Source of the DNA: an uncultured bacterium | GTDB lineage: Bacteria; Eisenbacteria; RBG-16-71-46; JAFGJU01 | Direction: 5' to 3' | Length of the DNA stretch: 64,000 nucleotides | NCBI GenBank assembly: GCA_964570935.1 | Contig: CAZMZP010000075.1 | Coordinates: 19,173 to 83,172 of the forward strand | Part shown: positions 4,124 through 64,000 of the stretch, in pieces | Layout: the number at the start of each line of letters is the position of its first letter | How positions within the stretch are numbered: position 1 is the stretch's first letter | Notes under the pieces: model-generated | The model's input: the letters and a program-made list of their open reading frames with translations, nothing else | Database searches by the model: none | Told to the model about the DNA's origin: nothing | Position numbers and translations under genes: made by a program

Positions 4124-6427
4124 ATGGAAGACCTGACAGGCAAAACCATTTCCCATTACAGAGTGTCCGCGCGCCTGGGCGCCGGCGGCATGGGCGTCGT
4201 GTACGGCGCCGAAGACACGAAACTCAAACGTCCGGTGGCTCTAAAGTTCATATCCCCGGAACTGACCACGGACCCGGAGGCCAAGGAGCGCTTCGTCCAC
4301 GAGGCTCAGACGGCCTCGTCGTTTGACCATCCCAGCATCTGCACGATACACGAAATAGACGAAACTCCCGACGGACAGTTGTTTATAGTGATGCCGTTCT
4401 ACAGCGGCCAGACCCTCGACGATAGGATTCGGCGAGGCCCGCTTCCTCTTGAGACAGCGCTGGACATCTCGGTGCGAGTTGTCGAGGGACTCGCCATGGC
4501 GCACGGACGAGGGGTCGTCCACAGGGACATCAAGCCCGCCAATATCTTTGTGATGGACGATGGCCAGGTGAAGATTCTGGATTTTGGGCTGGCAAAGCTC
4601 GGGGGTCTGTCCAAGCTGACCAGGCCGGGCTTCACGGTCGGGACTATGGCATACATGGCCCCGGAGCAGCTGAAGGGTGAAGAAGTCGACGGGAGAGCGG
4701 ACATCTGGTCCATGGGAGTCGTCCTTTACGAAACACTGTCCGGACGGCCTCCGTTCAAGGCAGACTATCCCGAGGCGCTAATCTACTCCGTACTCAGCAC
4801 TGAGCCGGCGCCGCTCGGCAGCGGGGTCGGCGACCCCGCTGGAACGCTGGACCGCATAATCACCAGGGCGCTTGCCAAGAACCGGGAGTCCAGGTACCAG
4901 AGCGCAGAGGACCTCCTTCAGGCTCTGCAGGGCGTTCGGGATGGCCATGCTGTGGCCGGGGACACAGAACAGCGCCATTCCCCCAAACAGGTTCCTTCAA
5001 TCGCCGTGCTGCCGTTCGCGGACCTGAGCCCGTCCAGAGACCAGGAGTATTTCTGCGACGGGATGGCCGAAGAGATCATAAACGCCCTCACGCGGGTTGA
5101 CGGCCTCAAGGTGGTCGCGCGCACTTCCGCCTTCGCCTTCAAAGGAAAGAGTGATGACATCCGCGACATCGGCAGACGGCTTTCCGTTCAGACTGTCATG
5201 GAAGGCGGCGTGCGCAAAGCCGGCGACAGGCTTCGAATCACCGTGCAGCTCGTAGACGTGACCGACGGCTATCAGCTATGGTCTGAGCGGTTTGACCGGC
5301 AGCTCGAGGACGTGTTCGCGGTCCAGGACGAGATCTCCAGGGCCATTGTGGACAAACTGAAAGTGGAACTTTTGCACGACGAGATGGTCGAAGTGCTGAA
5401 GCGCTCCACCTCCAACGTCGAGGCGTACCAGCTGTACCTGGAGGGGCGCTACCACTGGAACAGGCGGACGGCCACCGGGCTCGCGAAGTCGATCGCGCTC
5501 TTCCACAAGGCCGTCGCGTTGGACCCGGGCTACGCGCTTGCACACGCTGGTCTGGCCGACGCTTACAACATTCTCACCGGCTTCGGCGAGGGCCCGGACG
5601 AAGAGCTGTTCAAGAAGGCGGAGGACGCGGCGGCCAAGGCGCTGAGCATCGACGGCCGCTTGGCAGAGGCGCACACGGCGCTCGCGTACGCACGAGCAGG
5701 GCGCTGGGATTGGGCCGGCGCCGAGAGGCAGTACGCCAAGGCCATGGAGCTTAACCCGGACTACGCCCCTGCGCAGCAATGGTTTGCTTCGTACCTGGTG
5801 GCCATGGGCAGGTTTGACGAGGCCCTTCGCCGCATGAAGACAGCCCGGCAGCTCGACCCGCTGTCCCTGATCATCAATCTCGGGGAGGCCAACGTGCACT
5901 ACTACGCCGGGCAGTGGGACGGAGCCGAGGAGCAGTGCAGAAAGGTCCTCGAGTTGGATCCTGGCTTCGCGCTCGCGCACCAGCGTCTGGGGGCGATCTA
6001 CTTACAAAAGGGGGCGCACGAGAGGGGGCTGGAGGAGTTGGCTGTGTCGGCTAACCTCCTTTCCGGTGATAGAATGCCGATACTCCCGTGGCTCGGATTC
6101 GGATACGGGATCGCCGGGAGGGCGTCCGATGCTGGCAAGGTGCTGGATGAGCTTGAGGCCCTGTCCAGGGAGCGTCACGTCCCAGGGACCATGTTTGCCA
6201 TGGTCTACGCCGGCATGGGAGACAAAGAGCGCGTGATTCGTATGTTGCGGAAGGCATTTCAGGAGCGGGAAAGCTCGCTGATAACGCTGAAAGTGGAGCC
6301 GGTATTCAGAAGTCTCCGTTCAGACCCGGCTTTCCAGGCGATACTCGAAGACATGGGGCTCGCGGGGCCGCCGCGACGCTCCGCTAGTGGGGCAGTTCTC
6401 GGAGAGAATACGCATGAAAAGACGTGA
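4124..6427 (+). CDS. Hanks-type Ser/Thr protein kinase with TolB-N-like domain and TPR repeats
   Basis: LGAGGMGVVY, VALK, HRDIKPAN, DFGLAK, GTMAYMAPE; then SIAVLPFADLS...DQEYFCDGMAEE and TPR-like helices. Confidence 0.92.
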   Translation: MEDLTGKTISHYRVSARLGAGGMGVVYGAEDTKLKRPVALKFISPELTTDPEAKERFVHEAQTASSFDHPSICTIHEIDETPDGQLFIVMPFYSGQTLDDRIRRGPLPLETALDISVRVVEGLAMAHGRGVVHRDIKPANIFVMDDGQVKILDFGLAKLGGLSKLTRPGFTVGTMAYMAPEQLKGEEVDGRADIWSMGVVLYETLSGRPPFKADYPEALIYSVLSTEPAPLGSGVGDPAGTLDRIITRALAKNRESRYQSAEDLLQALQGVRDGHAVAGDTEQRHSPKQVPSIAVLPFADLSPSRDQEYFCDGMAEEIINALTRVDGLKVVARTSAFAFKGKSDDIRDIGRRLSVQTVMEGGVRKAGDRLRITVQLVDVTDGYQLWSERFDRQLEDVFAVQDEISRAIVDKLKVELLHDEMVEVLKRSTSNVEAYQLYLEGRYHWNRRTATGLAKSIALFHKAVALDPGYALAHAGLADAYNILTGFGEGPDEELFKKAEDAAAKALSIDGRLAEAHTALAYARAGRWDWAGAERQYAKAMELNPDYAPAQQWFASYLVAMGRFDEALRRMKTARQLDPLSLIINLGEANVHYYAGQWDGAEEQCRKVLELDPGFALAHQRLGAIYLQKGAHERGLEELAVSANLLSGDRMPILPWLGFGYGIAGRASDAGKVLDELEALSRERHVPGTMFAMVYAGMGDKERVIRMLRKAFQERESSLITLKVEPVFRSLRSDPAFQAILEDMGLAGPPRRSASGAVLGENTHEKT

Positions 6428-7133
6428 AGACCTCGTCGTGTGCCAGGTGTGCAAGAAACGGAAGCGCCTGAGCGAAGTCCTGCCTGCCGGGATGGTGCGG
6501 GATTCAGTCGTGGAAGTAATAAAAAAGACTCACCCCGACTGGTCCCCGGACGGGTTTGTGTGCACGTCCGACCTGAACCACTTCAGGACGGAGTACGTCA
6601 GGCGGGCGCTGGAGGTGGAGAGGGGAGAGCTCTCGGCCCTGGAGAACGAAGTCGTCAGAAGCCTCAAGGAGCAGGAAACCCTTTCCAAGAACGTCAACGC
6701 GGAGTTTGAAAGCCGGCTGACGTTCGGCGAGCGGATAGCAGACAAAGTCGCCGATTTCGGAGGCAGCTGGCGCTTCCTGATAATCTTTGGCTCCGTGCTT
6801 GTGCTTTGGGTGGGGATCAACTCAGTCGTGATGCTCTTGAGGCCGTTCGACCCCTACCCCTTCATTCTATTGAACCTCATCCTGTCCTGCCTCGCGGCCG
6901 CCCAGGCTCCGATTATCATGATGAGCCAGAACAGACAGGAGGCCAAGGACAGGCTGCGGAGCGAACACGATTACAAGATCAACCTCCGGGCCGAGCTGGA
7001 GATCCGCCATCTTCATGCAAAGGTCGACCAGTTGATGAACCACCAGTGGCAAAGGCTGATGGAAATCCAGGAAATCCAGACCGAGCTTATGCAGCAATTA
7101 GTCCCCGGGACGCGGCCGCAAGACGAAAGCTAG
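6414..7133 (+). CDS. DUF1003-like membrane protein
   Basis: TFGERIADKVADFGGSW, FDPYPFILLNL, APIIMMSQNRQ motifs; N-terminal CQVC...FVC; start overlaps kinase 3' end. Confidence 0.85.
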   Translation: MKRREDLVVCQVCKKRKRLSEVLPAGMVRDSVVEVIKKTHPDWSPDGFVCTSDLNHFRTEYVRRALEVERGELSALENEVVRSLKEQETLSKNVNAEFESRLTFGERIADKVADFGGSWRFLIIFGSVLVLWVGINSVVMLLRPFDPYPFILLNLILSCLAAAQAPIIMMSQNRQEAKDRLRSEHDYKINLRAELEIRHLHAKVDQLMNHQWQRLMEIQEIQTELMQQLVPGTRPQDES

Positions 7134-7188
7134 ACCGTTTCCCCATTCTCGCCGCCCCGCGAGCCGACCGAGGCTCCGTCCTTTTGTG

Positions 7189-7217
7189 TTGACCAAATCC
7201 CTCCCTGACTGTACCGT
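7189..7217 (+). promoter_or_regulatory. Putative sigma70 promoter of the DUF6754-like/TldD unit
   Basis: TTGACC-17 nt-TACCGT. Confidence 0.45.
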
Positions 7218-7290
7218 TTTGCCTGGATACGAGTTCTATCGCTTGTTCTGGAGCCCGGGGCGAATCTGCTCTTTCCGAAAGGAGGAAAGA

Positions 7291-8526
7291 ATGCCCGTTT
7301 CATCCAGGAACCGAGTCTTCTTCCTGCCGCTCGCCGTGTTTCTTCTTGCCATGATTCCCTTCCTCGTGTTTTCAGCCCGTGCAGACGGCCAGCCGCCGCC
7401 CGAGCAGGTCGGCGCGGTTGGCGTCGCGGAGGCGGCGCCTGATTCGGTCCTCCTCATGTTGACGCCAGTGGGGCACTTGACCGCTTCAGACACGCCCAGC
7501 GACGAGGGCGGGAGCATGACGGTCAAGTGGACCGAGCCCGAGAACGCCGCCCAGCTCGGCCTCACGTACAGAGTCATGAGAGCCGAGAGCCACCAGGGCC
7601 AGTACGCGGAGGTCTGCGAGCTTGCGGCGGGGGAGCACGAGTACGTGGACGCGGGACTCACTGACGGCAAGCAGTACTGCTACAAAGTGCTGTCGGTCGT
7701 GGGGCCCAGTGTCGCCGAGTCGGCGCCGACCTTGCCCGCCTTTCCCAGGGGCAACTGGTTCAGGATGTTCCGGCTCAACGCCCTGGTGCTTCTCATAATC
7801 TTCTCCAGCTCCGTCCTCTTCTACATCGCGCGAGCTCGCGGGGGCAAGCCCATCTACATCAGAAAGATCGCCGGCCTGAACGCCGTGGACGAGGCCGTGG
7901 GCAGGGCCACGGAAATGGGCAAGAAAATCCTCTACATCCCCGGCATCATGAGCATCGACGAAATACAGACCATCGCCAGTCTGGCCATCCTGGGACACGT
8001 CGCGAAGCTGAGCGCCCAGTACAACGCCGATTTGGAGGTCCCCAACAAGGACCCGCTCACGTTCGCGTCGGCCCGGGAAACCGTGAGGGAAGCGTATCTC
8101 GAGGCGGGAAGGCCCGACCTGTTCAGGGAAGAGATGGTCAACTACGTGACCTACGACCAGTTCGCGTACACGGCCTCGGTCACCGGCAAGATGGTGCGGG
8201 AGAAGCCGGCCACGAACTTCCTGATAGGCTCCTTCTACGCCGAGAGCCTTCTTCTGGCCGAGACCGGGCAGTCAGTGGGCGCGATTCAGATCTCCGGCAC
8301 GGCGGAGGTCGCGCAGCTCCCGTTCTTCGTGGTGGCGTGCGACTACACGCTCATCGGCGAGGAACTGTACGCGGCCAGCGCCTATCTATCCAGAGAGCCA
8401 GTCCTCCTGGGAAGCATAAAGGGACAGGACCTCACCAAGCTCCTCCTCATGCTTGCTCTTGGACTCGGCGTTATTCTTGAGTCTTTCGGTTTGGCTTTTG
8501 TTAAAGACGCCTTCAGGATGCAGTGA
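7291..8526 (+). CDS. Signal peptide + fibronectin-III + DUF6754-like membrane protein
   Basis: AAAGGAGG before ATG 7291; signal peptide ending ARA; FN3-like segment (TVKW...YRVMR...YVDAGL...YCYKV); TM; IRKIAGLNAVDEAVGRATEMGK; C-terminal TM. Family name from recall. Confidence 0.75.
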   Translation: MPVSSRNRVFFLPLAVFLLAMIPFLVFSARADGQPPPEQVGAVGVAEAAPDSVLLMLTPVGHLTASDTPSDEGGSMTVKWTEPENAAQLGLTYRVMRAESHQGQYAEVCELAAGEHEYVDAGLTDGKQYCYKVLSVVGPSVAESAPTLPAFPRGNWFRMFRLNALVLLIIFSSSVLFYIARARGGKPIYIRKIAGLNAVDEAVGRATEMGKKILYIPGIMSIDEIQTIASLAILGHVAKLSAQYNADLEVPNKDPLTFASARETVREAYLEAGRPDLFREEMVNYVTYDQFAYTASVTGKMVREKPATNFLIGSFYAESLLLAETGQSVGAIQISGTAEVAQLPFFVVACDYTLIGEELYAASAYLSREPVLLGSIKGQDLTKLLLMLALGLGVILESFGLAFVKDAFRMQ

Positions 8527-8552
8527 CATAGAGGGGTAAAGGAGGTTAAGAC

Positions 8553-9215
8553 ATGCGCAAACAGGTCCCACTGCTTCTGACGTTTTGCGCAGGGATGATT
8601 CCGATCATTGCGCTGTTTGTGCCGGAGAGACACGTCAGCACCGTCAGCACGACGCTGGACTCCTGGCTGATAATAGTCGCCGGATTCGCCCTGCTGCTGG
8701 GTGTCGTGAACGTCATCCAGATGAACACGAACAAGATAAAGAGAAGAAGTTCGGGCTGGCCTTACGCCATCGTGCTTCTGGCGGGGCTGGCAATAATGGG
8801 CACCTTCGGGTTCGCGGGCGCCTTCGGTGGGTTCGGCGGGATCGTCACCCGCCCGGACGGCACGTCCACGCCGTTCGACTGGCTGTACCAGAACGCGTTC
8901 CTTCCGCTCCAGGGCACGATGTTCGCCCTCCTGGCCTTCTTCATGGCCAGCGCCTCGTACAGGGCGTTCCGGGCCAGGAACGTGGAGGCCACCATTCTTC
9001 TCGTCGCGGCCCTCATCGTGATGTTTGGGCGGATTCCGTTCGGCGAGATGATCTCCAAATGGTGGCCGCTCACGACGGAGTGGATCATGGCCAGGCCCAA
9101 CATGGCCGCGCAGCGCGGCATCATGATTGGAGCCGGGTTGGGCGCGGCCTCGATGGCTCTCAGAGTGATTGTAGGAATCGAACGGTCGTACCTTGGGCTT
9201 GGCAAAGGCGAATAG
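8553..9215 (+). CDS. Uncharacterised multi-pass membrane protein (module gene B)
   Basis: AAAGGAGG RBS; about 6 TM segments; GTMFALLAFFMASASYRAFRARN. Confidence 0.8.
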   Translation: MRKQVPLLLTFCAGMIPIIALFVPERHVSTVSTTLDSWLIIVAGFALLLGVVNVIQMNTNKIKRRSSGWPYAIVLLAGLAIMGTFGFAGAFGGFGGIVTRPDGTSTPFDWLYQNAFLPLQGTMFALLAFFMASASYRAFRARNVEATILLVAALIVMFGRIPFGEMISKWWPLTTEWIMARPNMAAQRGIMIGAGLGAASMALRVIVGIERSYLGLGKGE

Positions 9216-9228
9216 AGAGGAGAATGCG

Positions 9229-10104
9229 ATGAACCTAGAACGAATAATGCAGGTTGATAGGCGCATCATCTACCTCTTCGTCGCCGTGGGTACGATTCTG
9301 CCTATCATTTTTGTGATTGGACTTCCGGTTTCGATCACTCCACCCGTGCAGATGGCGTTTGACAGGATAGAGAACCAGCTCAAGGCGGGCGACGTGGTTC
9401 TGGTCTCCTTCGACTACGGTCCTTCCTCCGCCCCCGAGAACGCGCCCATGGCCGACGCGTTCCTGCGACACTGTTTCTCAAAGGGCATCAAGGTCATAGT
9501 GATAGCTCTCTATCCTCTCGGCGGGCTCTCGGAGGCCGTGAGCGAGCTCAACAAGGTCGTGGCCGAGTTTCCGGACCTCGAGTACGGCGTCGACTACGTG
9601 AATCTCGGGTACAAGGACGGAGCCCAGGCCGCTATGCGGAAGATGAACGAGAACATCCACGAGGTCTTCCCGACGGACTTGCGGGGCACTCCGCTCAATC
9701 AGATTCCCATGATGAAGGACGTGAAGAACTACGCGGACGTCAAGCTCTGCATCACTCTCGCGACCGGCATCATAGGCGAATGGTGGGCGAACCTCGTCAA
9801 CGCGCAGTTCGGCCTGCCCGTCATCGTGGGGCCCACGGCGGTCTCGGCGCCCAAGTACTACGCCTACTTGGAGGCAAAGCAGATGGCCGGTCTCCTGGGA
9901 GGGCTCAAGGGCGCTTCCGAGTACGAGAGACTTGTGGTTAACAAGTACCCTCATCTCGCCGAGGTGTACGCCACTCCGGGCATGTACACCGCCACGAAGG
10001 GTATGGACGTGCAGTCGATAGTTCATCTCATCATGATCGCGTTCATCGTTCTCGGTAACGTGGTTTACTTCACTGGGAAAAGAAAACCACGCAAGGCCGC
10101 ATAG
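9229..10104 (+). CDS. Uncharacterised membrane-anchored alpha/beta protein (module gene C)
   Basis: GAGGAG RBS; N-terminal DRR+TM, soluble domain with FDYGPSSAPE, C-terminal TM and basic tail. Confidence 0.8.
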   Translation: MNLERIMQVDRRIIYLFVAVGTILPIIFVIGLPVSITPPVQMAFDRIENQLKAGDVVLVSFDYGPSSAPENAPMADAFLRHCFSKGIKVIVIALYPLGGLSEAVSELNKVVAEFPDLEYGVDYVNLGYKDGAQAAMRKMNENIHEVFPTDLRGTPLNQIPMMKDVKNYADVKLCITLATGIIGEWWANLVNAQFGLPVIVGPTAVSAPKYYAYLEAKQMAGLLGGLKGASEYERLVVNKYPHLAEVYATPGMYTATKGMDVQSIVHLIMIAFIVLGNVVYFTGKRKPRKAA

Positions 10105-10114
10105 GAGGTCCGTC

Positions 10115-10747
10115 ATGCCAGGTTTGGGCACATGGCTAGCTGCATTCTTTACGCTATGCATGCTTAGCTTTCTATACAAGGACAATCCGTTTTTTAGGTT
10201 TGCCGAGAGTTTCTTCGCCGGTCTTTCGCTCGGCTACTACATCGGTATCGTCGCGAACCAGACCATAAAGCCGAATCTGGTGCTCCCGTTGGCGCAGGAG
10301 TTTTCCGCCAACTGGCACCTGCTGTTCGCCGGCGGACTGGGCGTCATGCTGTACTTCCGCTACATAAAGCGGGTGGCCTGGGTGAGCAGGTGGGCGCTGG
10401 CCGTGTACGTTGGCTACTACGTTGGCGTCAACATGATGCAGAAGCTCCACGGAGAGGTACTGCCGCAGGTCGGCGACACGATGCTCTCCCTGAGCTGGAA
10501 CGGTCTCGGGACGCTCTGGAATCTGGTGATGGTGGTGGGCGTGCTCTCAGTGCTCATCTACTTCTACTTCTCCGCCGAGCACAAGGGCGCGATCGGGGGC
10601 GTATCCAGGGTCGGCATCTGGTTCCTGATGGTGTCTTTCGGAGCCGCGTTCGGCTACACGGTGATGGGCCGTATCTCGCTGCTCATAGGCAGGATGGTCT
10701 TCCTGGTGAACGAGTGGGCGCGGCCTTTGATCGGCCTGATCACGTAG
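10115..10747 (+). CDS. Uncharacterised multi-pass membrane protein (module gene D)
   Basis: AGGAGG RBS; LSFLYKDNPFFRFAE; about 6 TM segments. Confidence 0.8.
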   Translation: MPGLGTWLAAFFTLCMLSFLYKDNPFFRFAESFFAGLSLGYYIGIVANQTIKPNLVLPLAQEFSANWHLLFAGGLGVMLYFRYIKRVAWVSRWALAVYVGYYVGVNMMQKLHGEVLPQVGDTMLSLSWNGLGTLWNLVMVVGVLSVLIYFYFSAEHKGAIGGVSRVGIWFLMVSFGAAFGYTVMGRISLLIGRMVFLVNEWARPLIGLIT

Positions 10748-10835
10748 GCCGCGTTACCCGGGTCCGGGTCCGGCCCGCGGACCGGCGGGCAGGGACGCGT
10801 GTGCGCTTCCGGGCTCCGGCCGGAATGGAGGAGGC

Positions 10836-12365
10836 ATGAGTCTAAGCGATGTCCTCGGGGAGAGAATCCCAAGAAGACAGTTTCTGAGACGGACAGTAAA
10901 AGGAGGGATTGTGCTTGTAGGGGCTCCCGTTATGGCGAGCTTTCTCTCGCCGGAGGAAGCCGCCGCCCAGGAGAAAGCGCTGAGTGACGTCTTCAAGAAA
11001 GACGACCTCACCTCGGTTCTCAAAGAGGCCCTGGCCGGTGGAGGCGATTTCGCCGACGTCTACGTAGAGCGGGTGTTCACGACCACGATCAGCTACTCCG
11101 AGAGCAAGGTCCAAAGCGTGAGATACGGGCTGGACAGCGGGGCCGGCGTCAGGGTCATCAAGGGTGACCAGACCGGATACGCGTACTGCGAGGAGTTCAG
11201 CAAGGGCGCTCTCAACAAGGCGGCGCGCACCGCCGGAGAAATCGCGAGCGGACCGGCCAGACAGAAGATCGCCAAGCTGTCCGTCAGGAGCTCCGTGAAT
11301 CACGTCCCGTACACTGTGGATCCCATGACGGTCAGGGAAAAAGAGAAGGTCCGCATGGTGGAAACGGCGGACAGGGCGGCGCGTGAGGTGGACCCGCGGG
11401 TCGCCCAGGTGACGATACTGTACCAGGAGTCCATGAAAAACTTCGTCCTGGCCAACTCCGAGGGCGTCTACGTGAGCGACGAGCTTCCGATGATGTGGTT
11501 CACGATAGACGCGGTGGCCAGGGACGGGGACAAGAGAAGGCCGGGCTACCTCCGGCAGTCGGCCAGAAAGGGTTTCGAGTTCTTCAACGACAACGACCCC
11601 GCGAAGGCGGGCGCGAGAGCGGCCAGGCAGGCCGTGCTCATGCTCGACTCGCGGCCCGCGCCCATGGGCGAGATGCCGGTCGTGCTGGCGTCCGGCGGCG
11701 GCGTGATGTTCCATGAGGCCGTGGGGCACGGCCTGGAAGCCGACGGCGTGAAGAATCAGACCTCCATGTTCACCGGGAAGGTGGGCCAGAAGGTCGGCAG
11801 CGAACACGTCACGCTGCTTGACGACCCCACGCTGCCGAACCTCAGGGGAAGCTACAACTTCGACGACGAGGGAACGCTCGCGCGGAGCAAAGTGCTGATA
11901 GAAAAGGGCGTCCTCAAGGGCTACTTGAACGACCTTCTGACCGCAACGTACCTGGGCGCGGCGCCTACCGGAAACGGCCGGCGTGAGTCCTACAGGGACT
12001 ACCCTCTCGTCAGGATGTCCAACACGTACCTGGCGACGGGCGAGCTCGAGGCAGAGGAGATAATCGCCGCCACGGAGAAGGGGATTTTCGCCAAGGAGCT
12101 CGGTGGGGGAGAAGTGGACACGTCTTCCGGCAACTTCACGTTCGCGGTCCGGGAAGCCTATCTCATAGAGAACGGGAAGTTGGGCGCGCCCATACTCGGC
12201 GCGACACTGATCGGGAACGGGCCGGAAACGATGAAGCGGATCGACATGGTCGGTAACGACATCTCTTACTGGCCGGGCACGTGCGGGAAGGGACAGTGGG
12301 TCCCGGTCACGAGCGGCGCGCCCACTCTCAGAATCGCGCGCATCACAATAGGCGGAAGAGAATAG
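10836..12365 (+). CDS. tldD: TldD family metalloprotease with twin-arginine signal peptide
   Basis: FHEAVGHGLEAD (HExxxH), GSYNFDDEG, GNGRRESY, RMSNTY, C-terminal CGK; N-terminal PRRQFLR...AAA. Confidence 0.92.
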   Translation: MSLSDVLGERIPRRQFLRRTVKGGIVLVGAPVMASFLSPEEAAAQEKALSDVFKKDDLTSVLKEALAGGGDFADVYVERVFTTTISYSESKVQSVRYGLDSGAGVRVIKGDQTGYAYCEEFSKGALNKAARTAGEIASGPARQKIAKLSVRSSVNHVPYTVDPMTVREKEKVRMVETADRAAREVDPRVAQVTILYQESMKNFVLANSEGVYVSDELPMMWFTIDAVARDGDKRRPGYLRQSARKGFEFFNDNDPAKAGARAARQAVLMLDSRPAPMGEMPVVLASGGGVMFHEAVGHGLEADGVKNQTSMFTGKVGQKVGSEHVTLLDDPTLPNLRGSYNFDDEGTLARSKVLIEKGVLKGYLNDLLTATYLGAAPTGNGRRESYRDYPLVRMSNTYLATGELEAEEIIAATEKGIFAKELGGGEVDTSSGNFTFAVREAYLIENGKLGAPILGATLIGNGPETMKRIDMVGNDISYWPGTCGKGQWVPVTSGAPTLRIARITIGGRE

Positions 12366-12392
12366 AAAACGCACGAGAGTTAGCGGAGGACA

Positions 12393-13754
12393 ATGATGGC
12401 TAGAAGTGGTCTGTCCGAGTGGCTGCTGGAACGACTCTCAGACTCGGGAGCCCAGGAGGCGGAGGTCTTCGCCGTCGAAGGCACCACGCTCGAGCTCCGG
12501 GTGAGAGAAGGCAAGCTGGAGCGAATCAGCCAGGCCCAGACCGGCGGCATGGGCATAAGGACGATCGTGAACCGGAAGCTGAGCTTCGTGTACACCTCTG
12601 ACTTCGGCAGGAGCTCTCTCAACGGAGTCGTCGAGAAGGCCGTGGCCCTGGCCCAGCAGGCGACCCCGGACGAGTTCAACCAGCTTCCCGGCGAGAAACC
12701 CAAGAGAGTGGTGATGGACATCTTCGACCCCGAGCTCAGGTCGATCCCCACGAAGCGAAAGACCGAGTACCTGAAGGAGATGGAGGCTGCCGCTCTGGCG
12801 CACGACCCGGCGGTGAAGAAGGTGGACGGCGCGTCATACTTCGAATACTGGGGTCGCGTGGAGGTGGCCAACACGCACGGTCTTTCCTTCGGCTATGACG
12901 CCAGCACGTGCGGAGTCGGTGTGGAGGTCGTGGCGGAGAAGAACGGGGAGATGGAGACCGGCTACGCCGGCTGGAACACCCGCCATTACAGGAAGATTCC
13001 GTCGCCGGCCGCGCTGGGCAAGGAGGCCGCCGGCAAGGCGGTCGCACTGCTGGGAGCCAGACCCGTGGCCTCGCAGAGGGTGCCGGTCGTGTTCTCGCCC
13101 GACGCCGGCTTCGCGCTCCTGGCGGCGCTGAGCGCGGCGCTGCAGGGGGACAACGTCAACAAGAAGGTGTCATACCTCGGAGAACGATTGGGAGAGAAGA
13201 TCGGCTCCGACCTGGTGACGATTCACAGCAACGGTAGGCTGCCGGACGGGCCGGGCAGCATACCGGTCGACGCGGAGGGAGTGGGCACGACCGACCTGGT
13301 GCTTTTCGACAAGGGCGTGCTCAAGAACTTCGCGTACGACTATTCGTCGGCGCTCAGGGCCGGGAAGAAGTCCACCGGCAGCGCGGTGCGCGGGGACTAC
13401 CGCAACGTGCCCGGGATCGGCATGAGCAATTATTACATGGAGAAGGGCGTCAAGAAGCCCGCGGAGGTCATCGGGGACACGCAGAGCGGACTGTACGTCA
13501 TGAAGCTGTCCGGCTGGTGGATGGGCATAAACCCCGCTTCGCCGGAGTTCTCGAGCGCCGCCTCGGGGCGCTGGATACGAAACGGAGAGCTCGCCGAGCC
13601 GGTTTCGCGCGTCACGATTGCCTCGACGCTCCCGGAGATGCTGTCCGGAGTGGATTCGGTAGCCGACGACCTGGAGTTCCGCGACACCACCCGCGTTCCT
13701 ACGTTCAGAGTGAGGGAGATGGCACTTTCGGGTGCGACCGAGGACAAGAAGTAG
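12393..13754 (+). CDS. pmbA: PmbA/TldE family protein
   Basis: Adjacent to tldD; GMGIRTIV, DAEGV, FSSAASGRWIRNGE motifs; no HExxxH and no signal peptide. Confidence 0.88.
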   Translation: MMARSGLSEWLLERLSDSGAQEAEVFAVEGTTLELRVREGKLERISQAQTGGMGIRTIVNRKLSFVYTSDFGRSSLNGVVEKAVALAQQATPDEFNQLPGEKPKRVVMDIFDPELRSIPTKRKTEYLKEMEAAALAHDPAVKKVDGASYFEYWGRVEVANTHGLSFGYDASTCGVGVEVVAEKNGEMETGYAGWNTRHYRKIPSPAALGKEAAGKAVALLGARPVASQRVPVVFSPDAGFALLAALSAALQGDNVNKKVSYLGERLGEKIGSDLVTIHSNGRLPDGPGSIPVDAEGVGTTDLVLFDKGVLKNFAYDYSSALRAGKKSTGSAVRGDYRNVPGIGMSNYYMEKGVKKPAEVIGDTQSGLYVMKLSGWWMGINPASPEFSSAASGRWIRNGELAEPVSRVTIASTLPEMLSGVDSVADDLEFRDTTRVPTFRVREMALSGATEDKK

Positions 13755-13784
13755 TTGATTCGGCGACGCGTCAGTGTATAAGTG

Positions 13785-13821
13785 GGGTCGGAGACGCCGG
13801 GCGTCTCCGACCCTTTCGTTT
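13785..13821 (+). terminator. Rho-independent terminator
   Basis: 13-bp stem GGGTCGGAGACGC-CGG-GCGTCTCCGACCC followed by TTTCGTTT. Confidence 0.85.
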
Positions 13822-13918
13822 GATCGCGGCGGGAATGTTGCGACTGGGGCGCCGTCGCGGCCTTGGGCGTTCCCGCGTCGATTCCGGGCATCACGCATCC
13901 GAACAAAGCGAGGCGAAC

Positions 13919-14419
13919 ATGCAACAGTCACCAATCTTCTTCCCCGACACGGCTGACACGCTCATCTCGCTCGGCAAGCTGCTGTTCGCCCTGGCATGCG
14001 GGGCGGCCATCGGTTGGGAGAGGGAAATCCACGAGAAAGCGGCCGGCCTGCGGACGCACATGCTGGTGTCGGCGGGGGCCTGCCTTTTCGCCATCCTGGG
14101 TCTGAAGTTCCAGCAGAGCGGCCAGCCGGCCGATTTCCTGCGGGTGGCTCAGGGCATCATGATGGGTGTGGGGTTCCTGGCCGGCGGAGTGATCTTCAGA
14201 GAGGGCCCGCTGGTGCGCGGCCTCACGACTGCGGCCGGGCTGTGGGTGATAGCCGCCATCGGTCTTTCGGTCGGGATGGGGGACTTCGCTCTCGCCTTCA
14301 TCGCGACCGTGCTCTGCTTCGTGACCGTGTCGGTCCTCGGGAAGGCCGAGCGCAAGGCCAAGATGCGGCTGGGGGGTGGTCAGGAGCGGCCTGGACACGA
14401 CGCAGGCGGAAAACAGTGA
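13919..14419 (+). CDS. MgtC/SapB family membrane protein
   Basis: IGWERE...AGLRTHMLV, QGIMMGVGFLAGG, GLTTAAGLW. Confidence 0.9.
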   Translation: MQQSPIFFPDTADTLISLGKLLFALACGAAIGWEREIHEKAAGLRTHMLVSAGACLFAILGLKFQQSGQPADFLRVAQGIMMGVGFLAGGVIFREGPLVRGLTTAAGLWVIAAIGLSVGMGDFALAFIATVLCFVTVSVLGKAERKAKMRLGGGQERPGHDAGGKQ

Positions 14420-14491
14420 GCGAGCCTGCGTCGGCAGGGTGGCGCACGTAGAGCGTTGCAGGGCACGTCGCACGCCGCAGGGCACTCGGCG

Positions 14492-15859
14492 CTATCTGAA
14501 GAACACCAGCGTTACGAGCGCGAACAACGGTATCAATATCCCCACCGACCATGCCATGTAGCCGAAGAAGCTCGGCATCTTCACTCTGTGGCTTTCCGCG
14601 ATAGACTTGACCATGAAGTTCGGCGCGTTTCCGATGTACGTGATTGCCCCGAAGAAGACCGCTCCCGCAGAGATGGCCTTCAGAAACGCCGCGAACTGGC
14701 CGCCGCTGGGGTCGGGGAGGACGCCGCAGAGCAATCCGTTGACGCAGGACTCCGGCACGTGGAGCCTGCCAATGGCCAGGTTGAAGAACGTGAGATAGGT
14801 GGGCGCGTTATCCAGGAAGCTGGAAAGGCCTCCCGCAGCCCAGAAATAGTGCGCGGGCTGACTCACGGCCCTTATCAGGAACGCCATGGCCCCGCTCTCT
14901 CCCGCCCTCAGTATGGCCAGAACCGGCAGGATCGTCATGAAGATCCCGGCGAAGAGGTACGCGACCTCGACGATCGGATGCCAGGTGAAGTTGTTGTCCC
15001 TTCTGACGTGCTTACGGGTGGTGCGGAGGGAAAGCACTCCCATCGCGACGATGATGAGGTCCCTTACCAGGTCAGCGGTCTCCATCTCCACCCCGGCTAC
15101 GCTGAACGACCCCGCGTTCCAGACGCCCGACAGCAGGACTGCGCCAAGGATTCCTGCCAGGAACAGCACGTTGTGCCCCCCCTCGAGCCGCAGCACTTCT
15201 TCCTCCTTCCGGGAAACTACCTCCGGCGACTCCCTCCGGTAGTGGAAGCTGTCGATGAGGTAGTGCAGCACCAGCAGGGTCACCGACACCAGAAGCATGA
15301 GGGGAAGGAGATTGAACGTCCATGAGAACGGGACGCCGTGGATGAACCCCAGGAAGAGCGGCGGGTCTCCCAGCGGCGTGAGCGCGCCGCCGATGTTGGC
15401 CACCAGGAATATCAGGAAGATAAACACGTGCTTCTTGCGCTTGCGGGCGGCGTTGGCCCTGAGCAGAGGTCTTATCATCAGCATGGACGCGCCGGTCGTG
15501 CCCATCCAGGAGGCCAGCGCTGTTCCCAGGGCGAGGAAGAGCGTGTTCATCAGGGGCGTGCCCTGGAGCCGGCCGCGCAGGAGGATACCGCCGGACACCG
15601 TGAACAAACCCCACAGCAGTATTATGAACGGGATGTAGTCTATCAGGTAAATGTGCAGTATCTCGCGGGCGGCCGTCCCCTTGAACACTATCAGGAACGG
15701 GATTGCGAACATGGCGGCCCAGAACACGGACACCTTGGGATAGTGGTCCTCCCAGTGCTTGGGAACGATAAGCGGCAGCAGTGCTATTGAGAGCAGGATG
15801 CCCACGAAGGGCAGGCCTGTCCAGAGCGGGAGTAAGGCACCCAGTTGCTCGCTTGTCAC
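14492..15859 (-). CDS. Putative sodium:proton antiporter (IT superfamily)
   Basis: GTG start; multi-TM; IGGALTPLGDPPLFLGF, SSFLDNAPTY, TYIGNAPNFMVKSIAE. Confidence 0.85.
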   Translation of the reverse strand: MTSEQLGALLPLWTGLPFVGILLSIALLPLIVPKHWEDHYPKVSVFWAAMFAIPFLIVFKGTAAREILHIYLIDYIPFIILLWGLFTVSGGILLRGRLQGTPLMNTLFLALGTALASWMGTTGASMLMIRPLLRANAARKRKKHVFIFLIFLVANIGGALTPLGDPPLFLGFIHGVPFSWTFNLLPLMLLVSVTLLVLHYLIDSFHYRRESPEVVSRKEEEVLRLEGGHNVLFLAGILGAVLLSGVWNAGSFSVAGVEMETADLVRDLIIVAMGVLSLRTTRKHVRRDNNFTWHPIVEVAYLFAGIFMTILPVLAILRAGESGAMAFLIRAVSQPAHYFWAAGGLSSFLDNAPTYLTFFNLAIGRLHVPESCVNGLLCGVLPDPSGGQFAAFLKAISAGAVFFGAITYIGNAPNFMVKSIAESHRVKMPSFFGYMAWSVGILIPLFALVTLVFFR

Positions 15860-16345: not shown

Positions 16346-17704
16346 ATGAGAGCCCATTGCTTGATCCTTCTGGTCTGCCTGTTCGCGGTCGCCGTCTGCG
16401 CGGCCCCCGCCGGCGCTGTGGTCGTGAAAAAGGACCTGGCCCAGCTCGGCCAGGAAGCTCACAGCATAATCACCGGAAAGGTCATCGCCGCGGAGTCGAG
16501 ATGGGACGCGGACGACGGCCTCATCAACACGTATGTCACTGTGCGCGTGCGCGAGCACCTGAAGGGCAAGCCCACGGCTTCCGAAGTGGTGATAAGAGTG
16601 CCCGGAGGCGAAGTGGACGACATGGGGTTGGCCGTATCGGACGCCCCGTGGTTTGACCCCGGAGAAGACGTGCTGGTGTTCCTGACCCCGGAGCTCAAGG
16701 GCGCACACTCGGTAGTGGGACTGTACCAGGGCAAGCTCACCATCAAGGACGGCAAGGTCGAAGAGTTCGACCTTCCGGTGGGTGAAGTCCTGAATCACGC
16801 GAAGGGCGGCGTGCCCAACAAAGCCAAGCCCTCTCCTGCCTGCTACAAGCTCTGCGGCTACAACTGGCTGGCCAACGGCTCGTATTCCGGCGGAAAGTGG
16901 GGACCCGGAAACCAGGGTTGGTCCATCAACAACAACAACTCGGACGGCATTACCGACGCCCAGGTCACGACCGCCCTGCGCGGCGGGACGGGCGCCTGGG
17001 ACGGAGCAGGCGCGTGCTGGGCCTTCGGGAACAACGCCGGGAGCGTGACGCACGACAACATAACCGGTCCTTTGCGGAACTCTGTAAACCTTTGTACGTT
17101 CGGCTCAACGGGTGGGTCTGTGGCAACGACGTACACTTGGTACGTAAGAGTGGGAAAGAGCAAGAACACCGTCGAGGTCGACCTTGTGTTCGACGACGGA
17201 TGGCTGTGGCAGTATGAGGCCTGCGGCTCAGGCAGCGCCTTCGACCTCCAGAACGTGGCGGCCCATGAGTTCGGCCACTGGCTGTGCGTGGCCGACCTGT
17301 ACGGGACCGGCGACACAGAGAAGACCATGTACGGCTACGTGGACTACGGCTGGTGCCAGCAGAGGACCCTCCACCAGTGCGACATAGACGCGGCGAAAGC
17401 CATATACGGCGCCTGCGCGGCGGCCATGCCGCTGGCTTCGGCCGGCAGCGCCCAGCCCGGCAGAGCCAGCCTGGGCGAGATCTCCTACTCGCTTCCAGAG
17501 GCGGGGCCGGTGGCCGTGAAGGTGTTTGACATCGCCGGCCGGCTGGTCAGGGTGCTCGCCAACGAGAACCAGGCTGCCGGCGCCCACACGCTGAGATGGG
17601 ACGGTTCGACTCAAGCCGGCAACAGGGTGGCTGCGGGCGTGTATTTCTACAGAGTCGAGACGCTTAGGCAGACCTGGTCCGACAAGCTGATACTGGTAAG
17701 ATAA
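16346..17704 (+). CDS. Secreted matrixin/M10-like metzincin with C-terminal FlgD-Ig domain
   Basis: AAGGAGG RBS; signal peptide; HEFGHWLCVAD zinc motif, Met-turn KTMY; C-terminal IFDIAGRLVR...WDG...GVYFYR-type tail. Confidence 0.82.
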   Translation: MRAHCLILLVCLFAVAVCAAPAGAVVVKKDLAQLGQEAHSIITGKVIAAESRWDADDGLINTYVTVRVREHLKGKPTASEVVIRVPGGEVDDMGLAVSDAPWFDPGEDVLVFLTPELKGAHSVVGLYQGKLTIKDGKVEEFDLPVGEVLNHAKGGVPNKAKPSPACYKLCGYNWLANGSYSGGKWGPGNQGWSINNNNSDGITDAQVTTALRGGTGAWDGAGACWAFGNNAGSVTHDNITGPLRNSVNLCTFGSTGGSVATTYTWYVRVGKSKNTVEVDLVFDDGWLWQYEACGSGSAFDLQNVAAHEFGHWLCVADLYGTGDTEKTMYGYVDYGWCQQRTLHQCDIDAAKAIYGACAAAMPLASAGSAQPGRASLGEISYSLPEAGPVAVKVFDIAGRLVRVLANENQAAGAHTLRWDGSTQAGNRVAAGVYFYRVETLRQTWSDKLILVR

Positions 17705-58759: not shown

Positions 58760-60514
58760 ATGTCCGCCAGACGGTCACTGATAGCGCTACTGGTTTTTTT
58801 CTGCGTGCTGATCTTCATAGCGGTGGTTTTCGTCCTGGTGTTCGTGGGAAGAGCGCCCGAAGTCAAGGAGGGAAGCTACCTGGTCCTGTCGCTCGGCGGA
58901 GACATTCCGGAGGAGTCTTCCGGCTACTTCGACATGCCGTTCCTCGAGAAAGAACAGGTCACGATGAAGACTCTGCTCGAATGCGTGGAGAAAGCGAAGG
59001 TCGACCGGCGGATAGACGGAATCGTGGTCAAGATCATGCCCTTCTCCTTCGGCTGGAGCAAGGCTCACGAAATCAGAGAGAAGCTGGCCTGGTTCAAGGC
59101 GAACTCCAAGAAGCCGGTCGTGGCCTACATGATAATGGGCGGTGACAAGGAATACGCGCTGGCGAGCGTCTGCGACAAGCTGCTGATGCCCGAGGAGGGC
59201 GAGCTGTTCCTAGACGGCCTCATGTCCGAGGTCGTGTTCCTGAGGGGCATGCTGGACAAGATGGGCGTTGTCCCCGACCTCGAACACATCGGCGCCTACA
59301 AGAGCGCCTCCGACATGCTCACGCAGCGGACGTTCACTGAGGCGCACAGAGAGGTCACCAACTCCATGCTGGACGACGGGTTTTCGAGGCTCCTCAAGGT
59401 GATCGCTGACGCGAAGGGCCTGAGCACCGCGGAAGTAAAGAAGATCGTGGACTCTGGCCCCTACACGGCTGCGGAGGCCTACAAAGCCGGTCTCGTGGAC
59501 AGCCTCTTGTACGAAGACGAGCTGCCCGGGGTGCTGGGAGTCGAGAACGAGAGTCACTTCAAGACGGTTTCGCTGGAGGACTACGCAAGGGTGAAGTCCT
59601 CCACGCTCAAGCTGGGAAGAGGGCCCAAGATAGCCCTGGTCTATGCGGTAGGCACCATCACCGAAGGGAAGAGCTCCTTCAGCCCCATGTGGGGCAGGAC
59701 CCTGGGCTCCGACACCATGGTGGAGGCGCTGAAGGAAGCCGCCAGGGACGGGGACATCAAGGCCATAGTCCTCAGAATAGACAGTCCCGGTGGTTCCGGC
59801 CTCGCGTCTGACTTCATCTGGCGGGAAGTGAACAGGGCCAAGGCCAGAAAGCCGTTCATAGCCTCCATGTCGGACGTCGCCGGGTCCGGCGGCTATTACA
59901 TCGCCATGGCGGCGGACACGATCGTGGCCGAGCCGGGCACAATCACGGGTTCGATCGGAGTTGTGAGCGGGAAGTTCGCCACAGCCGGGCTCTACTCCAA
60001 GCTGGGTGTGAATCGGGAAATCGTCACGCGCGGCGAGCGCGCCGCGATGTTCTCGGACGTCCGCGCCTTCACGCCCGCCGAACGCCGAAAGCTGCTGGAG
60101 CGATTGTGGGAGTTCTACACGAGCTTCTTGCGGAAGGTGGCCCAGGGCCGTGGCATGACGGAGGAAGAAGTCGACAAAGTCGGCCGGGGGAGAGTCTGGA
60201 CCGGGGCTCAGGCCGTCGAGATAGGCCTCGTGGACGTCCTTGGAGGGCTGGACGAGTCGGTCGAGCTGGCTAAGGCCAGAGCCGGCATCCCGAAGGAGTC
60301 GGAAGTCACCCTGGTGGTGTTTCCCAAGCGAAAGATATCCATGCTGCAGAAGATAGTGAGAGCCTTCTCCGCCGAGTCGTACGAGACGTTCGAGGCGAGC
60401 CTGGGGGTGTTTGCCCCGGGCGGGAAGGCGACCCTCGAGGCGCTTCGTGCGGGAAGCCTGTTTTATCCCGGCGAGTCCCTGTACCTGATGCCATATCGGA
60501 TCGAGACGCAGTAG
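58760..60514 (+). CDS. sppA: Signal peptide peptidase SppA (two-domain)
   Basis: N-terminal TM; GAYKSASD, LRIDSPGG, AGSGGYY, ITGSIGV, GRVWTG. Confidence 0.92.
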   Translation: MSARRSLIALLVFFCVLIFIAVVFVLVFVGRAPEVKEGSYLVLSLGGDIPEESSGYFDMPFLEKEQVTMKTLLECVEKAKVDRRIDGIVVKIMPFSFGWSKAHEIREKLAWFKANSKKPVVAYMIMGGDKEYALASVCDKLLMPEEGELFLDGLMSEVVFLRGMLDKMGVVPDLEHIGAYKSASDMLTQRTFTEAHREVTNSMLDDGFSRLLKVIADAKGLSTAEVKKIVDSGPYTAAEAYKAGLVDSLLYEDELPGVLGVENESHFKTVSLEDYARVKSSTLKLGRGPKIALVYAVGTITEGKSSFSPMWGRTLGSDTMVEALKEAARDGDIKAIVLRIDSPGGSGLASDFIWREVNRAKARKPFIASMSDVAGSGGYYIAMAADTIVAEPGTITGSIGVVSGKFATAGLYSKLGVNREIVTRGERAAMFSDVRAFTPAERRKLLERLWEFYTSFLRKVAQGRGMTEEEVDKVGRGRVWTGAQAVEIGLVDVLGGLDESVELAKARAGIPKESEVTLVVFPKRKISMLQKIVRAFSAESYETFEASLGVFAPGGKATLEALRAGSLFYPGESLYLMPYRIETQ

Positions 60515-62394: not shown

Positions 62395-64000
62395 TTGAGC
62401 GAAGCTCAGAACGCGAAAATAGCTCGGATGTTTGACGCCATCGCGGACGTCCTGGAGTTCAAGGGCGAAATGGTGTTCCGCGTGAACGCTTATCGCCGCG
62501 CCAGCCGCGTGCTGCAGGACCTCAGGGAAGACGTCACGGTCCTGTGGAAGGACGGGAGGCTTGAAGAAGTGCCCGGAATCGGCGAGGGCCTCGCCGAGAA
62601 GATCGCCGAGTACCTCTCGACCGGCAAGATGAAAAGGTACGAGGAAATCACAAGCGGAGTCCCCTCCAGCCTCATCGAGCTGCTGCGCATACAGGGCCTC
62701 GGGCCCAAGACCCTGGCTCTGGCCCAGAAGAAGCTCAAGGTCCGGAACCTGGAAGACTTGAAGAGAGTCATAGACGACGGCTCGCTGGAAAAGCTACCGG
62801 GCATGGGCGCCAAGAAAGTCGAGAACATCAAGAAGGGAATTCAGCTCTTCGTGGCCAGCAAGGAGAGGATGTCGATCGGCGTGGCGCTCCCGATCGCGGA
62901 ACGCATCATCGCGGAGCTTCAGGAAGCCGCCGGGGTGAAACGGATCTCGGTCGCCGGCTCCCTCAGGAGACGCAGAGAGACCATAGGCGACATAGACATA
63001 CTGTGTGACGGGAAGAACGGCGCCGAGATCATCAGCAAGTTCACGCGACTCCCCAGCGTGGCGCGCGTGCTGGCGGCCGGCGACACGAAGGGCAGCATAG
63101 TGGTACAGGGCGGGGTCCAGGTGGACTTGAGAGTGGTGGAGCCGGACTCGTACGGCGCGGCCCTGCAGTATTTCACCGGCTCAAAGGCCCACAACGTCAG
63201 GGTCAGGGAGATGGCCAAGAAGAAGGGCCTCAAGGTGAACGAGTACGGCGTGTTCAAGGGCAAGAAGAGGATTGGGGGAAGGGACGAGGAGGACATATAC
63301 GGGGCGGTCGGGATTCCGATTATGCCGCCCGAGATACGAGAGGACTGGGGCGAGATAGAGGCGGCGGAGAAGGGAGAGCTTCCGGAGCTTGTGGAGCCGG
63401 GGGACATCAAGGGGGATTTCCACGTCCACTCGAAGTACAGCGACGGCATCGCGTCCATCGCTGACATAGCGGGGAAGGCCCGTTCCATGGGCTACAAGTT
63501 CGTTGCCGTATGCGACCACTCCCGGTCGGCCAGGTACGCAGGCGGGATGGAACCCAGGGAGCTTCTGAAGCAGATAGAGGAAATTAGGAAAGTGAACGCC
63601 GGGCTTGGAGGGAAGGGCTTCAAGGTTCTGGCCGGCGTCGAGGTCGACATCAAGGCCGACGGCACTCTGGATTTTTCGGACGACCTGCTCGACAAGTTGG
63701 ACGTGGTAGTGGCGTCCATACACAGCGGCTTCAAGCAGAGGGTGACTGAGCGGATGGTGGCGGCCATGAAGAACCCCCGCGTCCACATCATCGGCCACCC
63801 GACCGGCAGACTCATCTCGCGACGCGAGGGCTACGAGGTCGACCTGGACAGGGTCATGGAGGCGGCCAGAGACACGGGCACCGCCTTGGAGATCAACGCC
63901 TACTACGACAGGATAGACCTCTCGGACCTGAACTGCCGCAAGGCCAAGGAGCTGGGTGTCACACTCTCCATCGGCACCGATTCCCACAGGCTGGAGCAGC
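62395..64000 (+). CDS. polX: DNA polymerase X / PHP 3'-5' exonuclease, runs off the window
   Basis: Not in the ORF track (no stop in window). GAGGTG then TTG 62395; AYRRA, GIGEGLA, AGSLRRRRETIGDIDIL, VDLRVV, YFTGSKAHN, HVHSKYSDG, GTDSH. Confidence 0.92.
   Translation, partial: MSEAQNAKIARMFDAIADVLEFKGEMVFRVNAYRRASRVLQDLREDVTVLWKDGRLEEVPGIGEGLAEKIAEYLSTGKMKRYEEITSGVPSSLIELLRIQGLGPKTLALAQKKLKVRNLEDLKRVIDDGSLEKLPGMGAKKVENIKKGIQLFVASKERMSIGVALPIAERIIAELQEAAGVKRISVAGSLRRRRETIGDIDILCDGKNGAEIISKFTRLPSVARVLAAGDTKGSIVVQGGVQVDLRVVEPDSYGAALQYFTGSKAHNVRVREMAKKKGLKVNEYGVFKGKKRIGGRDEEDIYGAVGIPIMPPEIREDWGEIEAAEKGELPELVEPGDIKGDFHVHSKYSDGIASIADIAGKARSMGYKFVAVCDHSRSARYAGGMEPRELLKQIEEIRKVNAGLGGKGFKVLAGVEVDIKADGTLDFSDDLLDKLDVVVASIHSGFKQRVTERMVAAMKNPRVHIIGHPTGRLISRREGYEVDLDRVMEAARDTGTALEINAYYDRIDLSDLNCRKAKELGVTLSIGTDSHRLEQ

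Follow-up and report, generated by a model that had tools for sequence, protein, structure and literature searches.

The subject of this analysis is a six-gene cluster at 7.2-13.8 kb of a 64,000-nucleotide stretch of DNA (hereafter the window; contig CAZMZP010000075.1, positions 19,173 to 83,172) from an uncultured bacterium, with a GC content of about 62% and Candidatus Eisenbacteria as the nearest protein relatives. All six open reading frames (ORFs) lie on the plus strand, and they encode four proteins, here called A to D, followed by TldD and PmbA. We hold with moderate confidence that the cluster unites two evolutionarily independent modules, brought into one operon in a single Eisenbacteria subclade, and that A-D is an autonomous four-subunit complex. 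A first-pass annotation of the window had proposed a peptide processing and uptake system; we found no sign of transport or of a peptide substrate, and the link between A-D and the protease genes is limited to one Eisenbacteria clade.

In a locus scan that used one genome per species, more than 597 loci carried a homologue of A. The 80 best-scoring of these span more than ten candidate phyla (Eisenbacteria, Zixibacteria, Latescibacteria, WOR-3, Ignavibacteria, Coatesbacteria, Fermentibacteria, Poribacteria, Cloacimonadota, Edwardsbacteria and others), and the gene order A-B-C-D is kept in about 70 of them; the remainder are for the most part cut off at a contig end or have a solitary A. Of the 80 loci, 31 have two to four copies of A, and in the tandem arrays a separate set of B, C and D generally comes after each copy. 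Furthermore, C and D were found joined in a single protein of 497 amino acids (P0214, one JGI record), in which C corresponds to residues 11-289 and D to residues 285-484, and which may be a true fusion or may stem from a frameshift or a misassembly. The strict gene order across phyla, the complete tandem copies and the C-D fusion argue that A-D is one functional unit without an ATPase. A search for the Walker A motif in A-D gave none, and no ABC ATPase was recurrent among the cassette neighbours at the 80 loci. The ATP-independent membrane complex that had been claimed for A-D is thus supported as a unit by synteny and by the absence of Walker A, while the transport role attached to it did not find support.

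Head-to-tail arrays of three complete A-B-C-D cassettes, and in one case of four, are common among Zixibacteria and Ignavibacteria genomes, and multiple cassettes were seen at loci L011, L014, L023, L027, L030, L033, L044, L046, L051, L059, L063 and L066. The paralogues in these arrays share only about 40-50% identity, which points to ancient duplications and later divergence. The genes around the cassette vary and none is universal: the commonest, a MutL/GlmL-like ASKHA protein, occurs at 19 of the 80 loci and a barrel-sandwich protein of 375 amino acids at 17. Both belong to a recurrent trio that adjoins A-D in 17-19 of the 80 loci, co-oriented or divergent (immediately upstream of A at L032, L044, L046, L053, L055 and others), and that consists of a small membrane protein, the 608-amino-acid ASKHA protein (PF13941, E 8e-124) and the 375-amino-acid protein, whose match to an RnfC-type barrel-sandwich is weak.

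The association with the protease genes has a different distribution. The order A-B-C-D-TldD-PmbA, usually followed by MgtC, was found in eight loci of close relatives (L081, L082/L083, L084/L085, L086, L090, L092), in which A is at least 70% and TldD 69-93% identical to the window proteins and the gap between D and tldD measures 10-85 nt (10-16 nt in some). In the loci of other lineages, a TldD/PmbA pair on the same strand, adjoining the cassette downstream of D, was found in none of 80. In L093, the next relative out, whose C is 65% identical, genes for a histidine kinase and a sigma-54 regulator take the place of TldD/PmbA, and a Tat-type (twin-arginine translocation) TldD-PmbA pair is present without A-D at L091. 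Because the link is confined to one clade and Tat-type pairs occur without A-D, we read the two as separate modules fused into one operon in one lineage; A-D and TldD/PmbA are probably co-transcribed here and are not obligate partners. The dedication of A-D to the substrates or products of TldDE, as first proposed, is not supported, given the absence of the pair from all 80 loci outside the clade, which is essentially the outcome that the first-pass annotation had named as speaking against it.

Three related loci from Zixibacteria/Coatesbacteria (L032, L034, L054) have a lone PmbA-like gene, divergent and about 0.7 kb upstream of A. This was rejected as an association, given that a rough, uncomputed estimate expects one to three such cases per 80 loci by chance and that the family is multi-copy per genome. 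In one of the eight close relatives (L081; CP070702.1, a complete chromosome of an Eisenbacteria metagenome-assembled genome) A is called with 141 amino acids (8837-9263) and TldD with 212 (11605-12240), and no PmbA gene comes after TldD; the two modules may both have decayed here, or the sequence may contain frameshift or assembly errors.

Within the window, the gaps A-B, B-C, C-D, D-tldD and tldD-pmbA measure 26, 13, 10, 88 and 27 nt, respectively, in keeping with the short gaps already noted between the six same-strand genes. The longest of them, the GC-rich spacer between D and tldD (10748-10835), folds no better than shuffled sequence, lacks a T-tract and contains no intrinsic terminator. 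Near-identical fragments of the genes were found in two metatranscriptomes, and one of these (X23) contains a 228-nt contig over positions 10696-10922, with two mismatches and a depth of 3.6, that comprises the end of D, the entire spacer and the start of tldD. The terminator-free spacer, this RNA contig and the short gaps in the relatives together indicate that D and tldD are probably co-transcribed in this clade, as had been assumed for A-D and tldD.

TldD/E is established as a heterodimeric metalloprotease, whose reference behaviour includes the processive trimming of unfolded peptides (PMC5810440). In the window, the metalloprotease gene tldD (10836-12365) and its PmbA/TldE-family partner pmbA (12393-13754) each encode the three PmbA_TldD domains PF01523, PF19290 and PF19289. 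TldD carries RRQFLRR at residues 13-19 and the zinc site HEAVGH at residue 293; PmbA has neither, and is without a signal peptide or HExxxH. The TldD N-terminus, IPRRQFLRRTVKGGIVLVGAPVMASFLSPEEAAAQ, combines the twin-arginine motif with a hydrophobic region and an A-x-A-like cleavage site and is a predicted Tat signal, so that the description of a Tat-signal TldD/PmbA protease was correct. As in E. coli TldD/TldE, the genes are paired and adjacent, there are three domains in each protein and HExxxH is found in the TldD-like protein only; in contrast to E. coli TldD, the window TldD has an N-terminal extension of about 45 amino acids with the twin-arginine signal, and is therefore predicted to be periplasmic and not cytoplasmic. 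The NCBIfam equivalog models gave scores of 377.5 for TldD (cut-off 513) and 182.6 for PmbA (cut-off 438), and by profile the two are members of the family and not equivalogs of the E. coli proteins. The motif RRxF[LI] was present in 10 of the 14 TldD homologue N-termini examined and is common in homologues at about 50% identity. Judged from its sequence, the window pair is an unremarkable representative of a Tat-type subgroup that is itself widespread; a literature search on Tat-type TldD found nothing relevant.

These results bear on the proposal that all six genes form one peptide system, in which A-D would be a dedicated ATP-independent transporter or sensor for the substrates or products of TldD/E. 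The six same-strand genes with short gaps and one terminator would fit it, as would the RNA contig across the D-tldD junction, the arrangement kept in the eight close-relative loci and the Tat signal, which would place TldD on the membrane face that also bears the FN3 domain of A and the domain of C. Nevertheless, we regard such a system as highly improbable: besides the absence of the pair from the 80 other loci, the two-component system in its place in the next relative out and the Tat-type pairs that occur alone, A-D has no transporter signature, and the ectodomain of A is swapped in its homologues for beta-propellers or large unassigned ectodomains, unlike what would be expected for the binding of small peptides.

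Protein A (7291-8526) consists, in order, of a signal peptide, an FN3 ectodomain, one transmembrane (TM) helix, a soluble cytoplasmic segment of about 190 residues and a last, C-terminal TM helix. The protein matches Pfam PF20539 (DUF6754) with 391 bits (cut-off 27; E 2e-117) over model positions 2-255 of 257. Pfam fn3 itself gave no match in the A of the window; a profile search against the PDB identified the FN3-like beta-sandwich by its similarity to the Fn3-like 3mpc_A (E 6e-7), and an AlphaFold model from a 16-sequence alignment placed seven strands at residues 61-143 with a predicted local distance difference test (pLDDT) score of 84-94. The initial assignment of A as an FN3 plus DUF6754 protein is accordingly confirmed. 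Across phyla, the cytoplasmic segment has a mean pairwise identity of 81% (minimum 71%), compared with a mean of 39% for FN3 and about 46% for the TM helices of A.

A phmmer search with the DUF6754 part retrieved 2194 representatives at 50% clustering, 825 of them with E <1e-30. Among the 150 top-scoring representatives listed, whose lengths range from 283 to 1276 amino acids, DUF6754 is almost always C-terminal. The N-terminal parts comprise FN3 domains in multiple copies, beta-propellers of the BamB/PQQ-like type, a beta domain of RGI-lyase type or long ectodomains with no Pfam assignment. P0374, P0375, P0397, P0436 and P0501, for instance, differ in their ectodomains (beta-propellers, several FN3, about 1000 Pfam-unrecognised amino acids) and keep the C-terminal module constant. 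A beta-rich ectodomain followed by DUF6754, as in A, is also the organisation of thousands of homologues. The variable N-terminal parts on a constant C-terminal module suggest that A recognises diverse extracytoplasmic macromolecules and not small peptides, and the pattern points to such recognition being coupled to a constant membrane and cytoplasmic machine. No paper in the collection searched mentions DUF6754; its fixed association with three membrane proteins that belong to no described family and the exchange of its ectodomain both appear to be undescribed. An apparent DUF6754-SppA fusion ORF (L019, 9860-12247) was discarded as an artefact of a scaffold gap, marked by a run of N; this artefact is also the reason why the SppA-type signal-peptide peptidase of the window (58760-60514, two S49 domains) clustered with A.

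A variable ectodomain combined with a conserved cytoplasmic domain is a hallmark of membrane receptors, and A-D could accordingly be a signalling complex, in which the sensor ectodomain of A controls a DUF6754 output and B, C and D act as co-receptors. The recurrence of a histidine kinase and a sigma-54 response regulator near the cassette (clusters 7 and 8; 11/80 and 9/80 loci) is consistent with this. Nonetheless, such two-component neighbours occur in a minority of the loci, DUF6754 matches no known output domain, and it is rare for a receptor to depend on three dedicated partners, polytopic or bitopic, that recur with each paralogous cassette, so that we consider a receptor of this type quite unlikely.

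The partners of A have the features that had been ascribed to them. Protein B (8553-9215; 220 amino acids) has six hydrophobic segments by hydropathy, in agreement with about six TM helices, and the conserved motifs SASYRAFRAR and GIERSYLGG. Protein D (10115-10747; 210 amino acids) is likewise polytopic, with three strong and about three weaker hydrophobic segments, again compatible with about six TM helices. Protein C (9229-10104), whose ATG start at 9229 matches that of a 99%-identical homologue of 291 amino acids, gave a confident model (pLDDT 88, predicted TM-score, pTM, 0.85) of a TM helix, a five-stranded Rossmann-like alpha/beta domain and a second TM helix, the latter with conserved Q/H/N and followed by a basic cytoplasmic tail. 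From the flanking charges, following the positive-inside rule, the Rossmann-like domain of C is predicted to face the periplasm.

Searches of B, C and D against Pfam, NCBIfam, PADLOC and PDB sequences returned no family match, and PDB profile searches with A, B, C and D gave nothing besides FN3. The profile check suggested for A-D was therefore informative for A, through DUF6754 and FN3, and not for its three partners, and the statement that A-D lacks a Walker motif or transporter signature is upheld by the motif scan and the family searches. The window proteins B and D, in particular, had no Pfam or NCBIfam match to known secondary-transporter or stator families (MFS, TRAP, TTT, MotA/ExbB, Rnf/Nqr). 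Among their homologues (27 for B and 24 for D) only scattered sub-threshold Pfam matches were seen, such as TMD0_ABC in 14/27 with a best E of 6e-4, and pooling the weak Pfam matches over all alignment members pointed to no consistent family. Paralogy of A with C and of B with D was also dismissed, as hhalign gave a probability below 1% and BLAST no detectable paralogy, and PADLOC did not match A-D to a defence system.

About 16 TM helices in total without an ATPase would also suit a secondary importer, ion-coupled or facilitated, with the ectodomain of A and the domain of C as tethered capture modules and B/D as the permease. The tandem paralogous cassettes, which are common as in transporter operons, and the membrane-tethered periplasmic alpha/beta fold of C are in line with it. 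We judge an importer unlikely, considering that searches at E values up to 10 linked neither B nor D to a transporter family, apart from the scattered weak matches, and that no invariant acidic residue can be placed clearly within the membrane. In addition, the 81% identity of the cytoplasmic domain is unusual for an accessory part of a permease, and ectodomains that extend A proteins to 1276 amino acids suit macromolecules better than small solutes.

A role in envelope biogenesis, by which A-D would export, anchor or modify a glycan or a lipid-linked intermediate, is suggested by WecA/MraY-like transferase and methyltransferase genes directly upstream of the cassette in several Eisenbacteria loci (clusters 12 and 16), by the FN3 and RGI-lyase-type beta domains on A paralogues, and by the fold matches of C, the best of which, albeit weak, are halves of sugar-nucleotide enzymes. 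These upstream glycan genes are found in only 4-5 of the 80 loci, the Foldseek template modelling scores of about 0.3 correspond to generic Rossmann similarity, and no glycosyltransferase or flippase family matched A-D; this makes a biogenesis complex very unlikely in our view.

In the two-module reading that we favour, A-D would assemble into one ATPase-free inner-membrane complex. Here A would carry an interchangeable extracytoplasmic binding module (in this case one FN3) on a TM helix, with its cytoplasmic domain re-anchored in the membrane by the second TM helix; C, anchored by its two TM helices, would present the Rossmann-like domain between them to the periplasm; about 12 further TM helices would come from B and D. 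The variable module of A may bind a periplasmic or envelope macromolecule, a glycan or a protein, and the constant B/C/D core would link this binding to the cytoplasmic domain, itself constant, making A-D a modular transmembrane transducer or translocation complex rather than a dedicated peptide permease. TldD, for its part, would be sent folded to the periplasm by Tat, presumably with the signal-less PmbA co-exported as a folded passenger, and the exported TldD/E would degrade periplasmic peptides. The shared operon would give co-expression in this clade and possibly a local functional recruitment. The specific transducer or translocation mechanism for A-D is put forward tentatively, as a possibility. 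That A-D is a new class of envelope machine of the FCB group and related phyla, recruited in this clade to take up or sense the peptides released by TldD/E, would go further and strikes us as unlikely.

Several observations weigh against the two-module reading. The 80 loci, being the best-scoring ones, are a non-random sample. The arrangement of A-D with TldD/PmbA is still found, with very short gaps, where TldD identity has fallen to 69%, which may reflect selection for co-expression and a functional link in the clade. The X23 contig has a low depth and contaminating DNA is a possible source of it. In the AlphaFold run that modelled FN3 well, the DUF6754 domain was poorly modelled (pLDDT about 30). 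The topology of A-D derives from hydropathy and the positive-inside rule only, the Foldseek matches of C (GT-B, epimerase and eIF2B halves) are generic, and no structural match assigns an activity to A-D.

Among known systems, Ton/Tol/Mot-type stators, TRAP/TTT transporters and ABC importers share with A-D the co-encoded small membrane subunits, one bitopic subunit that reaches into the periplasm and the tandem paralogous operons. A-D differs from all of them: it resembles none in sequence or profile, lacks an ATPase and has no MotA/ExbB, ExbD, DctQ/M or TctA/B signature, and the double-anchored, 81%-conserved cytoplasmic domain of A has no counterpart there. With no resemblance in sequence or architecture to characterised transporters, stators, secretion or signalling systems, A-D would fall outside the known kinds.

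Concerning the boundaries of the cluster, the probable start of gene A is the ATG at 7291, with AGGAGG 5 nt upstream, and it was preferred to the GTG at 7186, which we regard as an over-extension. A terminator on the plus strand (13784-13824), with a 14-bp stem and a T-rich tail, lies between PmbA and the downstream MgtC gene; its hairpin (13784-13814, 10 GC pairs) has a folding free energy of -28.5 kcal/mol (z -4.4), and none of 200 shuffled sequences was equally stable, confirming the strong terminator annotated at 13785. At the other end, 3' of the upstream DUF1003 gene, a weak terminator-like hairpin on the plus strand (7161-7176; dG -11, z -1.8) consists of a 5-bp stem and a CGTCCTTTTG tail and is the likely 5' boundary of the transcription unit. 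The promoter-like element previously marked on the plus strand at 7189-7217 (TTGACC, 17 nt, TACCGT, with a -10 match of 3/6) did not hold up: it amounts to a lone TTGACC hexamer and is no better than chance, and a sigma-70 scan of positions 6000-15000 returned 0 sites against 1.3 expected by chance. A search for a sigma-54 site upstream of A found none.

Upstream of A, a Ser/Thr kinase with a TPR region (4124-6427) overlaps the gene of the DUF1003 membrane protein (6387-7133) by 41 nt, and genes for a kinase and a GAF-SpoIIE phosphatase recur upstream of the cassette in the relatives L084 and L086. The terminator is followed by an MgtC-family gene (13931-14419) and, beyond it, by a convergent CitMHS-type transporter on the minus strand (14492-15859), an arrangement kept with the cluster in close relatives. 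At the position that corresponds to 16346-17704, the product in the syntenic relative L082 is annotated as a metallopeptidase of the M10 type, secreted and ending in a FlgD-Ig-like domain, as is typical for secreted proteins of these phyla. A PolX-type DNA polymerase with a PHP domain (62395-63999) runs off the end of the window.

The TldD/PmbA genes next to A-D are a lineage-specific neighbour and, as such, give no basis for naming the function of A-D. Should A-D prove to be a real complex, it would be a core membrane machine of many uncultured phyla of sediment and soil, with a cytoplasmic domain in A conserved at the level that is usual for central machinery, and establishing its role would close a considerable gap in how FCB-group genomes are annotated.

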